Source: a virus (lineage: Duplodnaviria; Heunggongvirae; Uroviricota; Caudoviricetes). Taken from it: 52,506 bases of DNA. Both the position numbers and the translations under genes were made by a program. Location of the stretch: positions 1 to 52,506 of the IMG/VR virus record IMGVR_UViG_2534681604_000014; one strand, written 5' to 3'. Of the stretch, positions 2,485 through 10,690 are shown one piece after another; the first letter of the stretch is position 1, and each line of letters opens with the position of its first letter. The notes under the pieces are model-generated. The model searched no databases, had not been told where the DNA came from, and saw only the letters and a list, made by a program, of their open reading frames with translations.

Positions 2485-3678
2485 GTGACCTGGGACGATC
2501 ACAAGAAGAATTTTGCTCGCCTGGCGCGAGATGGTGGTTACACCATCGCACAGTATGCCGCCGAGTTTAATCTTAACCCTAATACCGCACGTCGTTATCT
2601 CCGTGCCTTCAAAGAAGACACCAGGACAGCGGACAGCCGCAAGCCAAATAAGCCAGTCAGGAAGCCACTAAAAAGCATGATCATTGATCACTCTAATGAT
2701 CAACATGCAGGTGATCGCATTGCGGCTGAAATAGCGGAAAAACAAAGAGTTAATGCTGTTGTCAGTGCCGCAGTCGAGAACGCTAAGCGCCAAAATAAGC
2801 GCATAAATGATCGTTCTGATGATCATGACGTGATCACCCGCGCCCACCGTACCTTACGTGATCGCCTGGAACGCGACACCCTGGATGATGATGGTGAACG
2901 CTTTGAATTCGAAGCTGGCGATTACCTGATAGATAACGTTGAAGCGCGGAAGGCCGCGCGCGCTATGTTGCGTCGGTCCGGGGCCGATGTTCTGGAAACC
3001 ACTCTTCTGGAAAAGTCTCTTTCTCATCTCCTTATGCTGGAGAACGCCAGGGATACGTGTATTCGCCTGGTGCAGGAAATGCGCGATCAGCAAAAAGACG
3101 ATGATGAAGGTACTCCGCCTGAATACCGTATCGCGAGCATGCTAAACAGCTGTTCCGCGCAGATAAGCAGCCTGATCAACACCATTTACAGCATCCGGAA
3201 TAACTATCGAAAAGAAAGCCGGGAGGCGGAAAAGCACGCTTTGTCTATGGGGCAAGCTGGCATTGTTAAGCTGGCATACGAACGAAAGCGTGAAAATAAC
3301 TGGTCAGTGCTGGAAGCAGCTGAATTCATCGAGGCGCATGGCGGGAAAGTGCCGCCCCTGATGCTGGAGCAAATCAAAGCCGATCTGCGTGCTCCTAAGA
3401 CCAATACCGATGATGAGGAAAGGCAAACAGCCGTCGGTGGCCCTTCTCTTGAAGATCTGGACAAAGTTGCGCGAGAACGGGCCGCCAACCGCCGCGCCGA
3501 TGCCGCATTGTGGATTGAGCAGCGTAGGGAAGAAATCGCCGATATCGTTGATACAGGCGGTTATGGAGATGTTGATACTGAAGGTGTATCAAACGACCCA
3601 TGGCTGGAACAAGACCTGGACGAAGACGAGGAGGAAGACGAAGAAGTTACCCGCAAGCTATACGGGGATGATGATTAA
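2485..3678 (+). CDS. pacA: terminase small subunit PacA
   Basis: 397-aa ORF, GTG start; sequence recognised as P1 PacA; contains the pac site. Confidence 0.95.
2678..2836 (+). other. pac packaging site (4 + 3 TGATCA/G hexamers, Dam GATC sites)
   Basis: Hexamers at 2678, 2685, 2697, 2712 and at 2808, 2820, 2831 flank an AT-rich centre inside pacA; this is the P1 pac architecture. Confidence 0.9.
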
Positions 3679-5162
3679 TGGCCAGAAGTTGCGTAACGGA
3701 CCCACGTTGGCGCGAGCTGGTGGCGCTATATCGTTATGACTGGATTGCGGCCGCTGATGTTTTGTTCGGCAAAACACCTACCTGGCAGCAGGATCTGATT
3801 ATTGAGTCTGTGCAGGAACAGGGTAGCAAGACATCTGTTTCGTCTGGTCACGGTACCGGGAAATCAGACATGACTTCTATCATGATCATGTTGTTCATAA
3901 TCATGTATCCCGGTGCCCGCGCCATTATCGTTGCGAACAAAATTCAGCAGGTAATGACCGGTATTTTCAAGTACATCAAGATAAACTGGGCTACTGCCAC
4001 CAGCCGTTTTCCATGGCTTGCTGATTATTTTGTTCTGACAGAAACCGCTTTCTATGAGGTTACTGGTAAAGGGGTATGGACAGTTGTACCGAAGGGCTTT
4101 CGTCTGGGAAGTGAAGAAGCTCTCGCAGGTGAACACGCAGATCATCTTCTGTATATTATCGATGAAGCCTCCGGTGTCAGTGATAGAGCTTTCGGTATCA
4201 TCACCGGTGCTCTTACCGGACAGGATAACCGCATCTTATTGCTGTCACAGCCTACACGCCCAAGCGGCTATTTCTACGATACTCACCATAAACTGGCCAA
4301 GCGTCCTGGTAACCCTGATGGCGTTTATACGGCGATCACGCTTAACAGTGAGGAATCACCGCTGGTAACGCCAGCATTTATCAAAATGAAGCTGGCGGAG
4401 TACGGCGGGCGTGATAACCCTATGTACATGATTAAGGTACGCGGCCTATTCCCTAAATCACAGGATGGCTTCCTTCTTGGACGTGATGAGGTTGAACGCG
4501 CAACGCGGCGGAAAGTCAAGATTGCCAAAGGATGGGGCTGGCTTGCATGTGTGGACGTTGCTGGTGGTACGGGACGGGATAAGTCCGTTATCAATATCAT
4601 GATGGTGTCCGGCCAGCGAAATAAACGCCGTGTAATCAACTATCGAATACTGGAATACACAGACGTTACAGAAACGCAGCTTGCCGCCAAAATTTTCGCA
4701 GAATGTAATCCTGAGCGATTCCCAAATATCACCATAGCGATAGACGGCGATGGCCTGGGTAAAGCAACGGCGGATCTGATGTACGAGTATTATGGTATTA
4801 CCGTACAGCGTATACGCTGGGGTAAAAAGATGCATAGCCGTGAAGATAAGAGCCTGTACTTTGATAAACGTGCTTATGCCAACGTTCAAGCCGCAGAGGC
4901 CGTAAAATCTGGTCGTATGAGACTGGATAAGGGTAATGAAACTATTGAGGAAGCGTCGAAAATTCCTGTAGGGATTAACTCCGCAGGTCAATGGAAGGTG
5001 ATGAGTAAGGAGGATATGAAGAAAAAACTCAACCTGCACTCACCAGACCATTGGGATACATATTGTTTCGCTATGCTGGCGGATTATGTTCCCCAGGATG
5101 AAGTGCTTAGCGTCGAAGACGAAGCGCAGGTTGATGAAGCTCTGGCATGGCTTAATGAATGA
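3678..5162 (+). CDS. pacB: terminase large subunit PacB
   Basis: 494-aa ORF, start overlaps the pacA stop (TAATG); P-loop-like GHGTGKS. Confidence 0.95.
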
Positions 5163-8297: not shown

Positions 8298-8314
8298 TAA
8301 TTTATTAGAGCAAT
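8298..8314 (-). promoter_or_regulatory. C1 operator (Op99-like)
   Basis: Reverse complement is ATTGCTCTAATAAATTA, 16 of 17 to consensus. Confidence 0.75.
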
Positions 8315-8380
8315 TGTCAAACAACTATGAAAAACAATCCAGTATTTGGCTGGTGGAGTGGGATTTTTCTCTCAAATTTT

Positions 8381-8397
8381 ATTGCTCTAATAATTCT
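8381..8397 (+). promoter_or_regulatory. C1 operator (Op99-like)
   Basis: ATTGCTCTAATAATTCT, 15 of 17 to consensus. Confidence 0.65.
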
Positions 8398-8440
8398 TGA
8401 TTTTTATGCGCAGCTGGACGTAGACTCCTCTTCGGACCTA

Positions 8441-8474
8441 ATAGCTTCGTATAGCATACATTATACGAAGTTAT
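8441..8474. other. loxP-like Cre recombination site with one arm substitution
   Basis: ATAGCTTCGTATA-GCATACAT-TATACGAAGTTAT; canonical loxP arm is ATAACTTCGTATA, so one arm has G at position 4. Confidence 0.9.
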
Positions 8475-8572
8475 CTTAAGGGTTATTGAACATGATCAAT
8501 TTACCTGTAAATCCATACAGTTCAATACCTTATCAGGTCAAATAGTGATCACTTGATCATTTGATCAAGGTT

Positions 8573-8631
8573 GCGCTACGTAAAATCTGTGAAAAGTTGG
8601 CGGTGTTAGTCCTACAGATTTCGCGTAGCGC
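8573..8631. repeat. 18-bp imperfect inverted repeat (stem-loop) between loxP and the cre-side ORFs
   Basis: GCGCTACGTAAAATCTGT ... ACAGATTTCGCGTAGCGC, one mismatch, 23-nt spacer. Confidence 0.6.
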
Positions 8632-8663
8632 ACTTAGCACCACCAATCAATCAGAGGTGAAAA

Positions 8664-8885
8664 ATGGGATATTCAGCTGCTAAAGTGTCCACTCATCTTG
8701 AGCTTGAGAAAAACCGTGGTTACTGGCGGGCAAAAGGCTTTGAGCGTGATAGTTACCAACTGTCATTATCTCGCGGTGAAGAGAAAATAGAACGCACGCG
8801 CGGTCGCTGGCGTTTCTATGACGAGAACCATAACCAGGTAAAGGCAGAGCCGATCCTGTACACTCTGCTGAAAACAATAATTTAA
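8664..8885 (+). CDS. hypothetical protein (position of P1 cra)
   Basis: 73-aa ORF between loxP and cre. Confidence 0.4.
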   Translation: MGYSAAKVSTHLELEKNRGYWRAKGFERDSYQLSLSRGEEKIERTRGRWRFYDENHNQVKAEPILYTLLKTII

Positions 8886-8904
8886 CTTGATTATGAGGTG
8901 ATGA

Positions 8905-9300
8905 ATGTTTAATGGCCTGACAGATGCCAAGGTAAACGCCTTACTGAACGACGCAAAACAAAAAGCTGCTAACCCTGGAACGAATGAAAATGAACGTGCT
9001 ATGGCTGTTGCAATTTGGGAGTTAGCAGAAGAAGTAAAGCGAAACCGCTTACTATACACTCGGGTTTACCAGCAATTTGATGGTGCGAGCTGGATAGATA
9101 TCGAAGAGGCTGAATATGCAACATGCAAAAAAGAAAAAAAGATTGTTCGGATTTTGCATAAAGCAGCAACCCCAATCACTGTAGAAATCCCCGATCACAG
9201 ATATTTCGAGAACGATGATCTACCAGGGGATGTGATTCGAATTATTGATGAGATACTTCATGAACAAGGCTTAACTGTTAAAATTACGCATAATAAATGA
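8905..9300 (+). CDS. hypothetical protein, overlaps cre start
   Basis: 131-aa ORF; 4-nt ATGA overlap with cre; no recognisable motif. Confidence 0.45.
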   Translation: MFNGLTDAKVNALLNDAKQKAANPGTNENERAMAVAIWELAEEVKRNRLLYTRVYQQFDGASWIDIEEAEYATCKKEKKIVRILHKAATPITVEIPDHRYFENDDLPGDVIRIIDEILHEQGLTVKITHNK

Positions 9301-10328
9301 CTAATTCGTTAACCGTTCACCAAAATTTGCCTGCATTGCCGGTCGATGCAACGAGTGATGAGGTTCGCAAGAACCTGATGGATATGTTCAGGGATCGCCA
9401 GGCGTTTTCTGAGCATACCTGGAAAATGCTTCTGTCCGTTTGCCGGTCATGGGCGGCATGGTGCAAGTTGAATAACCGGAAATGGTTTCCGGCAGAACCT
9501 GAAGATGTTCGCGATTATCTTCTATATCTTCAGGCGCGCGGTCTGGCAGTAAAAACTATCCAGCAACATTTGGGCCAGCTAAACATGCTTCATCGTCGGT
9601 CCGGGCTGCCACGACCAAGTGACAGCAATGCTGTTTCACTGGTCATGCGACGGATCCGAAAAGAAAACGTTGATGCCGGTGAACGTGCAAAACAGGCACT
9701 GGCGTTCGAACGCACTGATTTCGACCAGGTTCGTTCACTCATGGAAAATAGCGATCGCTGCCAGGATATACGTAATCTGGCATTTCTGGGGATTGCTTAT
9801 AACACCCTGTTACGTATAGCCGAAATTGCCAGGATCAGGGTTAAAGATATCTCACGTACAGACGGTGGGAGAATGTTAATCCATATTGGCAGAACGAAAA
9901 CGCTGGTTAGTACCGCGGGTGTTGAGAAGGCACTTAGCCTGGGGGTAACTAAACTGGTCGAGCGATGGATTTCTGTCTCTGGTGTGGCTGATGATCCGAA
10001 TAACTACTTGTTTTGCCGTGTCAGAAAAAATGGCGTAGCTGCGCCATCTGACACCAGCCAGCTATCAACTCGCGCCCTGGAAGGGATTTTTGAAGCAACT
10101 CATCGATTGATTTACGGCGCTAAGGATGACTCTGGTCAGAGATACCAGGCCTGGTCTGGACACAGTGCCCGTGTCGGAGCCGCGCGAGATATGGCCCGCG
10201 CCGGAGTTTCAATACCGGAGATCATGCAAGCTGGTGGCTGGACCAACGTAAATATTGTCATGAACTATATCCGTAACCTGGATAGTGAAACAGGGGCAAT
10301 GGTGCGCCTGCTGGAAGATGGCGATTAG
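9297..10328 (+). CDS. cre: Cre tyrosine recombinase
   Basis: 343 aa, near-identical to P1 Cre from residue 6 onward; N-terminus is MTNSL rather than MSNLL. Confidence 0.97.
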   Translation: MTNSLTVHQNLPALPVDATSDEVRKNLMDMFRDRQAFSEHTWKMLLSVCRSWAAWCKLNNRKWFPAEPEDVRDYLLYLQARGLAVKTIQQHLGQLNMLHRRSGLPRPSDSNAVSLVMRRIRKENVDAGERAKQALAFERTDFDQVRSLMENSDRCQDIRNLAFLGIAYNTLLRIAEIARIRVKDISRTDGGRMLIHIGRTKTLVSTAGVEKALSLGVTKLVERWISVSGVADDPNNYLFCRVRKNGVAAPSDTSQLSTRALEGIFEATHRLIYGAKDDSGQRYQAWSGHSARVGAARDMARAGVSIPEIMQAGGWTNVNIVMNYIRNLDSETGAMVRLLEDGD

Positions 10329-10345
10329 CCATTAACGCGTAAATG

Positions 10346-10362
10346 ATTGCTCTAATTCTTTG
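10346..10362 (+). promoter_or_regulatory. C1 operator-like site (core only)
   Basis: ATTGCTCTAATTCTTTG; perfect 11-nt core, divergent 3-prime half. Confidence 0.4.
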
Positions 10363-10378
10363 ATATTTATGGTGACAT

Positions 10379-10690
10379 ATGAGAAAGGATTTCAACATCG
10401 ACGGAAAATATGTAGTGCTGTCTGTAAGCACTAATATTCAGTCGCCAGCCGTCATTGTCACTGTAAAGCTGAGCGATAGAATGCCTGATATTGATTCAAT
10501 ATCCATTGCGTTCCCTGTCAAAAGTATGCGTGGTGCTGAACATTTCGTGATGAATGCCACCGAGGAAGAAGCACGGCGCGGTTTTGCTAAAGTGATGTCT
10601 GAGTTTGGCGAATTTTTGGGGCACGTTGACAAAGCCCTCTCAATCAGTTCAGCAAGGTCCAAAGCGTTAACAGCTTCCATGATGAAATAA
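10379..10690 (+). CDS. hypothetical protein (c8 position)
   Basis: 103-aa ORF between cre and ref. Confidence 0.4.
   Translation: MRKDFNIDGKYVVLSVSTNIQSPAVIVTVKLSDRMPDIDSISIAFPVKSMRGAEHFVMNATEEEARRGFAKVMSEFGEFLGHVDKALSISSARSKALTASMMK

Follow-up and report, generated by a model that had tools for sequence, protein, structure and literature searches.

Cre-lox is among the most widely used genetic tools, and the natural operon behind it is usually taken to consist of cra and cre only. For recombination in vitro and in heterologous cells, no protein other than Cre is needed. In the cra-cre operon of phage P1, which carries the promoters P3cre, P2cre and P1cre, the two genes are separated by a spacer of 7 nt (cra at 207–428 and cre at 436–1467 of NC_005856), and cre is preceded by a weak Shine-Dalgarno (SD) sequence. 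The window analysed here is the whole 52,506-nt stretch of a Caudoviricetes record (IMG/VR IMGVR_UViG_2534681604_000014). It shares with the P1 operon loxP, apart from one substitution, as well as cra, cre, the LexA box, the Dam sites and P3cre. However, in place of the 7-nt spacer it has 411 nt that include an additional gene, here called orf131. The cre gene of the window has no SD, and its start overlaps the stop of orf131. The last seven codons of cra and the first six to seven codons of cre are also of a foreign allelic type.

The same layout, cra-orf131-cre, is found in plasmid pO111_2 of Escherichia coli O111:H- 11128 (NC_013370), and the coding sequence of its orf131 (protein WP_000481733.1) is 100% identical to that of the window. 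The backbone of pO111_2 differs from the window, with nucleotide identities of 96.7% in cre and 84.6% in c8, and the cassette is therefore present in more than one P1-type background. The window itself is identical to no deposited plasmid. The gene product is already in the databases, as the 'hypothetical protein' WP_000481733.1 and as PHROG 20152, and records of pO111_2-like plasmids give orf131 no function. A literature search found no paper that mentions either orf131 or this accession.

Layout and predicted expression of the loxP–cre region

The features of the region are collected in Table 1. As in a P1-type Cre-lox module, the 34-bp loxP is followed by a co-oriented cra and, downstream, by the tyrosine-recombinase gene cre. 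Relative to P1 the amino acid identity is 95% for Cra and 98.8% for Cre, and the latter matches the Pfam Phage_integrase family with E = 4.8e-33. Between the end of loxP and the cre ATG there are 822 bp, as against 418 bp in reference P1 (NC_005856); counted from the centre of lox, the two values become 839 and 435 bp. Since 411 nt stand where P1 has a 7-nt spacer, the net gain is 404 bp. The first-pass annotation had put the interval at ~820 bp with two ORFs of 73 and 131 aa, against ~430 bp in P1, and had described the longer ORF as extra relative to P1 and as overlapping the cre start by ATGA. All of this is borne out: the two ORFs are cra and orf131, orf131 is absent from NC_005856, and the four bases of the overlap are common to both reading frames.

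Table 1. Features of the loxP–cre region, with positions counted along the whole window
Feature	Position	Strand	Remarks
loxP	8441–8474	+	33/34 bases match; one left-arm substitution: ATAGCTTCG in place of ATAACTTCG
P3cre (pR1) counterpart	8561–8586	+	Identical to the promoter annotated in P1; most upstream promoter of the cra-orf131-cre unit
cra, 73 aa	8664–8885	+	PHROG 804 (annotation gives no function)
P1cre (pR3) counterpart	8857–8881	+	Rests on the P1 annotation only; just upstream of orf131
Recombinant tract, minimum extent	8865–9317	+	JK004/Salmonella-type; backbone around the tract is P1-type
Inserted segment, 411 nt	8886–9296	+	Replaces the 7-nt cra-cre spacer of P1 and JK004
orf131 SD, GAGGTG	8895–8900	+	4 nt 5' of the ATG
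orf131, 131 aa	8905–9300	+	PHROG 20152
ATGA overlap of cre start and orf131 stop	9297–9300	+	Proposed termination/re-initiation site
cre, 343 aa	9297–10328	+	Tyrosine recombinase
c8	10379–10690		Downstream of cre

The loxP substitution replaces A with G at the fourth position of the left 13-bp arm (ATAGCTTCGTATA). Of 21 further fetched loci that span the site, 19 have the canonical 34-mer, some of them with a Cre only 81% identical. The exceptions are locus L010, which has a substitution in the spacer, and the Cronobacter phage JK004, which has A1T. The Cra family is confined to P1-like elements. The AlphaFold2 model of Cra reaches a pLDDT of 71 and has no fold match. Many Cra proteins carry the name 'creatininase' in NCBI/RefSeq (e.g. 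WP_282526074.1 in locus L002), which for the 73-aa Cra of P1-like elements is probably an annotation artefact.

Promoter activity was taken from the P1 record and mapped onto the window by sequence. The LexA box, Dam sites 1–3 and P3cre, all upstream of cra, are identical to those annotated in P1. The −35 element of P2cre (8740–8745) reads TTGAGC in the window and TTGATC in P1, with loss of a GATC (Dam) site. In the P1cre counterpart the −35 element TGTACA is kept and the −10 element is ATAAT in place of ATTAT. A consensus promoter scan of positions 8300–10450 found none, including at the P1cre counterpart, and no terminator was found on the + strand of the same interval, so none lies between cra and cre. 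With no consensus promoter or terminator of its own found, orf131 does not resemble an autonomous transcription unit of the moron kind. It would instead be transcribed from the cre promoters, as it has neither a terminator nor a strong promoter of its own, and be translated from its own strong SD. The earlier suggestion of an accessory gene riding on the cre transcript agrees with the lack of a + strand terminator between cra and cre and with the presence or absence of the gene between conserved neighbours.

The predicted ribosome-binding signals are unevenly distributed along the operon. The anti-SD duplex of orf131 has a free energy of −9.9 kcal/mol, next to −10.1 kcal/mol for cra, and the SD is conserved in all alleles. 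For cre the corresponding value is +1.0 kcal/mol in the window and +0.7 kcal/mol in JK004, neither of which has an SD at this gene, versus −3.0 kcal/mol for the weak SD of P1; the ORFs upstream of cre each have a strong SD. The window thus shows both features of a coupled gene pair, a downstream gene with no SD of its own and a start that overlaps the upstream stop. This ATGA overlap is invariant in all orf131 alleles of both lineages described below. Neither junction has RNA structure beyond the expectation from shuffled sequences.

Because cre has no ribosome-binding site of its own, in the window it is probably translated by re-initiation after orf131. Ribosomes that finish orf131 would re-initiate at the ATGA and continue into cre, forming a coupled chain from cra through orf131 to cre. 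The orf131 protein would then be made whenever Cre is made, that is, early in infection as well as, in small amounts, in the plasmid prophage. More generally, the locus suggests that translation of cre is normally coupled to the preceding ORF, whichever that is, and the simplest reading of the signals would be that it is read by ribosomes finishing cra in P1 and JK004 and orf131 in the window. With an SD of its own and an end that falls on the cre ATG, the cassette would fit this coupling logic.

The orf131 gene and its product

The orf131 family comprises seven distinct nucleotide alleles. Each consists of exactly 131 codons with no indel or internal stop, at nucleotide divergences of up to 11%. 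Between E. coli-type and Salmonella alleles, dN/dS (Nei-Gojobori) is 0.12–0.24, and at most 0.35 over all such pairs, with dS of 0.26–0.46. The closest allele pairs have dN/dS of 0.5–0.65. In a six-frame test, the orf131 frame has the lowest dN/dS in every comparison and contains zero stops, with 0.12–0.24 in frame +0 versus 0.96–2.8 in four other frames. Second lowest, as expected from its geometry, is the antisense frame whose third codon positions coincide with those of orf131, with dN/dS of 0.21–0.36, but this frame contains 5–6 stop codons.

Conservation is uneven along the protein. Residues 1–63 and 91–131 are conserved, and residues 64–90 form a variable patch in which 13 of 27 positions vary, compared with 13 of 104 elsewhere (Fisher p = 1.5e-4). 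Within the patch dN/dS is about 0.3–1.1, which indicates relaxed constraint, without demonstrated positive selection or an established arms-race signature. Outside the patch it is 0.07–0.20 in deep comparisons and 0.42–0.52 for the closest alleles, and the C-terminal 41 residues are almost invariant. Judged by this pattern of substitution, orf131 is a real protein-coding gene under purifying selection.

On the − strand, a 97-aa ORF (8766–9059) runs antisense to the 3' end of cra and to the first third of orf131; the Salmonella allele likewise has it open, over 81 aa. This ORF was rejected as a gene, since its length varies between alleles and its frame is the one with the 5–6 stops mentioned above, and it is regarded as a by-product of the sense gene. 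An RNA element in place of the ORF or within it was also considered and rejected: there are no credible Rfam matches and no tRNAs, and the junctions fold no more stably than shuffled sequence.

Two readings would deny the protein a function. One is that the ORF is spurious and lies in non-coding inserted DNA, for which the lack of homologues of known function and a low-confidence structure prediction could be cited. The six-frame dN/dS values, the seven alleles free of indels and stops in spite of their divergence, and the strong SD argue against this, and we consider it extremely improbable. The other is that the ORF is merely a translated leader delivering ribosomes to cre, as the combination of an SD-less cre, a strong orf131 SD and a conserved ATGA overlap might suggest. 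However, a leader of this kind does not account for the purifying selection on the amino acid sequence seen outside the patch in deep comparisons, for the invariant length or for the near-invariant C-terminus. Moreover, cra already delivers ribosomes across the 7-nt gap in P1 and JK004, so a leader of 131 codons would be unneeded. This possibility is therefore also very improbable, and a functional protein remains the preferred reading.

The protein is 15.0 kDa with a pI of 5.6, soluble, with one cysteine and without a hydrophobic segment. It matches PHROG 20152 over its whole length (E = 3.8e-92, residues 1–131 of a 131-position profile), a family whose annotation gives no function. Searches of Pfam and NCBIfam gave no match at E <= 1 beyond noise, and sequence and profile searches of the PDB gave none. 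PADLOC-DB 2.0 gave no significant match, and the sole one, to JetC (E = 0.01, 11.7 bits), involves a coiled-coil-like stretch and is considered noise. When 5.8 billion protein clusters were searched with a word index, six came back, each with at least 81% identity and all of them from E. coli and Salmonella. An exhaustive HMMER profile search of 1.84 billion representatives recovered nothing beyond the orf131 family, one truncated copy and a spurious repeat protein. Together the protein searches covered about 15 billion proteins and found near-identical copies only. The repeat protein P0008 was rejected as a distant homologue, as it matches only a short 'GASW' motif.

AlphaFold2 applied to an alignment of seven sequences predicts four helices followed by a strand-helix-strand unit, with a mean pLDDT of 53. 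A Foldseek search of this low-confidence model against the PDB and BFVD returned nothing below E = 0.6. The first-pass annotation had seen no known motif in the protein and had proposed structure prediction and a remote-homology search; both have now been carried out, and its view still holds after Pfam, NCBIfam, PADLOC, PDB and fold searches, none of which gave an informative match. No paralogue was found elsewhere in the window, and no diverged DNA relative or source was found in E. coli genomes or phages. The idea that orf131 arose by duplication and divergence of the Cre N-terminal domain was rejected, since BLASTP finds no similarity. By these searches orf131 is an orphan, without detectable relatives outside its small family.

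Distribution and probable recombination in two lineages

The additional segment occurs in no record of a 50,697-record phage collection searched with megablast, blastn and tblastn. The gene is absent from P1, P7, SJ46, phi456, RCS47, JK004 and every other phage record, and the P1-type 'empty' junctions of P1, P7, SJ46, phi456, 813R1 and 673R5 are virtually identical, with one synonymous difference (in P7) across 92 bases. Among 5,426 complete E. coli genomes cre is present in 695 and orf131 in 32. These 32 make up ~5% of the cre-positive genomes, and on this count orf131 is not a constituent gene of the P1-type Cre-lox module. Many of the carrier genomes are labelled O111:H8 and one O103:H2. 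The segment is also present in 14 PLSDB plasmids, all predicted to be non-mobilisable, and those inspected are P1-like. A scan of species-representative genomes found no copy.

The genomic context is strictly conserved. The order cra-orf131-cre, with the same spacing, is found in all 19 fetched loci that bear orf131, and no other context was seen; IMG/VR contains 10 orf131 loci, all in this context. The GC content of orf131 is 40.2%, versus 46.4% for cra and 50.3% for cre. Both its presence or absence between syntenic neighbours and its deviant base composition are as in a moron or accessory cassette.

The only chromosomal match to the cassette is in E. coli 06-00048 (NZ_CP015229.1, 1878335–1878765). 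In another assembly of this strain the cassette is on a 136-kb plasmid (NZ_CP012497.1), which points either to an integrated P1-like element or to an assembly difference. In one IMG/VR locus (L021, UViG_2534681832_000025, 431–1853) both orf131 and cre have several frameshifts in homopolymer runs, most likely because of errors in sequencing and not because of decay. Two truncated proteins, P0006 and P0007, resemble this case.

A second lineage is represented by Salmonella contigs of 91–96 kb, which carry a canonical loxP, a gene of 356 aa, cra (71 aa), orf131 and cre (342 aa), and by Cronobacter phage JK004 (MZ188976), which has orf356-cra-cre without orf131 and with the 7-nt cra-cre spacer of P1. 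The order of loxP, cra and cre is as in the window, and the Salmonella orf131 shares with that of the window its position, its SD and its ATGA overlap. However, the 356-aa gene between loxP and cra is absent from the window, and the flanking genes are only 57–71% identical to it at the nucleotide level. As JK004 lacks orf131 and its Salmonella relatives have it, two diverged lineages each have members with and without the gene, at one and the same nucleotide position. The comparison across P1-like phage-plasmids that the first-pass annotation had proposed thus finds orf131 in 32 of the 695 cre-positive E. coli genomes and variable at this one site in both lineages.

The 356-aa gene (PHROG 7674, with no function given in the annotation) is located at 2699–3769 in loci L005–L010 and at 1801–2871 in JK004 (L011). 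It overlaps the start of cra by 4 nt and is a second example of cargo between loxP and cre. It has no Pfam, NCBIfam, PADLOC or PDB sequence match.

Divergence between the window and the Salmonella lineage differs strongly from gene to gene. Nucleotide identity is 66–68% in cra, 71% in cre and 57% in c8, with proportions of synonymous differences (pS) of 0.60–0.61, 0.81 and 0.73–0.76, respectively. In orf131 it is 89%, with pS of 0.29–0.35. The corresponding inter-lineage dS of orf131 is 0.37–0.46, and the flanking genes are at or near synonymous saturation. Between two Salmonella elements the situation is reversed, as orf131 has dS of 0.31 and dN of 0.043 versus 0.12 and 0.003 for cre, and dN in orf131 is 0.04–0.09 between backbones whose Cre is 99% identical. 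One further copy (L020, 3001–3393; IMG/VR UViG_2713896905_000004) combines the N-terminal substitutions G4S, N15K and N27S of the AVS0578 type with a remainder of the window type, which indicates an intragenic recombinant allele. Because orf131 is more diverged than cre within Salmonella and less diverged between the lineages, and because of this recombinant, these comparisons show that the orf131 alleles have their own genealogy, separate from that of the flanking genes.

High inter-lineage similarity sets in within the last ~10 codons of cra and ends near codon 12 of cre. Over the last seven cra codons of the window (8865–8885), 7 of 21 bases differ from P1, all synonymously, and 3 of 21 differ from Salmonella and JK004; the first six to seven cre codons are likewise of the JK004/Salmonella type and not of the P1 type. 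Outside the tract in Table 1, the window is 94–99% identical to P1 and 57–71% to the Salmonella lineage, and inside it is about 89% identical to the latter. Since the junctions are of the JK004/Salmonella type and the backbone is of the P1 type, a tract of about 450 bp (about 8865–9317) was probably imported into the P1-type backbone by homologous recombination, with crossovers that would lie where cra ends and cre begins, in conserved sequence. The first-pass annotation had called the 131-aa gene an insertion. It is indeed extra relative to P1, but instead of a fresh insertion into P1 sequence the window has a ~450-bp recombinant tract with JK004-like junctions. The C-terminus of Cra, VKAEP(I/M)LYTLLK, is nearly invariant across lineages, and the crossover of the cassette falls there.

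The same tract bears on the Cre protein. Its N-terminus is MTNSLTV in the window and MSNLLTV in P1, and over the whole protein the substitutions relative to P1 Cre are S2T, L4S, A252D and L284Q. S2T and L4S are common to all P1-type carriers of orf131. The coincidence of the additional ORF with an altered Cre N-terminus, which had been pointed out earlier, is thus real, and is probably explained by import of the tract, within which both substitutions lie. The idea that Thr2 is forced by the ATGA overlap was rejected, as JK004 has ATGACC and a Cre that starts with M-T, with no orf131 upstream. Other orf131-bearing plasmids have A252S rather than A252D in Cre; residue 252 is presumably near the DNA-contacting region around R259/E262.

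Possible roles and comparison with known systems

On balance we lean towards the reading that orf131 is a genuine accessory gene, which a minority of P1-like phage-plasmids carry as a compact cassette between cra and cre. Its role would most likely be accessory and moron-like. Cre-lox probably does not need orf131, because only 32 of the 695 cre-positive E. coli genomes carry it. Two observations stand against the accessory reading. The gene is found only next to cre, which a Cre-related function would equally predict, and it has no promoter and terminator of its own, unlike classical morons, which carry both. In any case, orf131 is a real gene with clear limits, and the accessory slot that it occupies is of a known kind; it is worth recording but not surprising. 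The locus also makes clear that the short loxP–cre interval accepts extra genes in nature, namely orf131 here and the 356-aa gene in the sister lineage.

The leading guess for a specific role, which is a tentative one, is a putative part in phage-host or phage-phage conflict, as an anti-defence or exclusion protein; anti-defence cargo had also been suggested in the first-pass annotation. The low GC content, the shuffling of alleles across backbones and the variable patch are compatible with such a role without proving it. Comparison with anti-defence proteins (ArdA, Ocr, KlcA/ArdB, Acr etc.) gave no Pfam match and, for the pLDDT 53 model, no PDB or BFVD fold match, and the pI of the protein makes it mildly acidic only. 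The protein is small, soluble and mildly acidic, with helices and short strands in its predicted structure and no catalytic motif, and would probably act by binding another protein. If orf131 is conflict cargo, it would be a new orphan effector from a plasmid prophage of Shiga-toxin-producing E. coli O111 and Salmonella.

Two further explanations compete with a gained accessory cassette, one concerning its origin and the other its function. The gene could be ancestral to the whole P1/JK004 group and have been deleted in most lineages. It occupies the same position in two deeply diverged lineages, and its precise deletion would recreate the 7-nt spacer architecture. Furthermore, the start of orf131 agrees with the P1 cre start in 18 of 31 bases when anchored on the ATG (z about 3.5), the second best of 853 + strand ATGs. 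That similarity vanishes against JK004 (17 of 53 bases), and the start region is at most a possible duplicate of the cre start. More importantly, the inter-lineage dS of orf131 is far below that of the saturated flanks, so that the copies share a much more recent ancestor than the backbones do, and the junctions in the window are of foreign type. Ancestry followed by loss is thus quite unlikely.

The other explanation is a function in recombination itself. As a dedicated accessory factor of Cre-lox, orf131 could adjust recombination through binding to Cre, to Cra or to the lox region, for instance by shifting the balance of cyclisation against dimer resolution, or it could restrain off-target activity. 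Its restriction to the position between cra and cre in 19 of 19 loci, the invariance of its ATGA overlap with cre across lineages, its association with Cre proteins only 81% identical in lineages that use the same loxP, and its likeness to small genes immediately upstream of other tyrosine-recombinase genes would all fit. Against this, about 95% of cre-positive E. coli genomes do without the gene, Cre is established to suffice for recombination, and the protein is acidic with no DNA-binding motif. In addition, variation in orf131 is uncoupled from variation in Cre and Cra, and loxP is canonical in the other orf131-bearing elements examined, bar the spacer substitution in L010. We therefore regard a dedicated factor as unlikely. 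The more specific proposal, that orf131 is a natural partner of Cre-lox made in fixed proportion to Cre through coupling and modulating its activity, stability or site choice, appears rather improbable. Were it true, a recombinase considered to need no helper would have its first known accessory protein in orf131, and if orf131 acts on Cre it would offer a new handle on recombinase control.

The locus amounts to the P1 cra-cre operon plus one gene, and it can be set beside two further familiar arrangements. The gene order recalls xis-int of phage lambda, where a small gene is located immediately upstream of, and overlaps, the gene for a tyrosine recombinase; the likeness is in gene order only. 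Excisionases and other recombination directionality factors (RDFs) are DNA-binding proteins of basic character whose targets are asymmetric att sites; in the symmetric Cre-lox system no such factor is required. orf131 differs from such factors in being acidic (pI 5.6), and searches of Pfam and NCBIfam found no Xis/RDF match and no Xis, AlpA or HTH-type domain. From phage morons it differs in having no promoter or terminator of its own and in lying inside a predicted translationally coupled chain. It is like them, however, in its presence or absence between conserved neighbours, its GC content lower than that of the flanks, its dispensability for core function and its predicted expression in the prophage.
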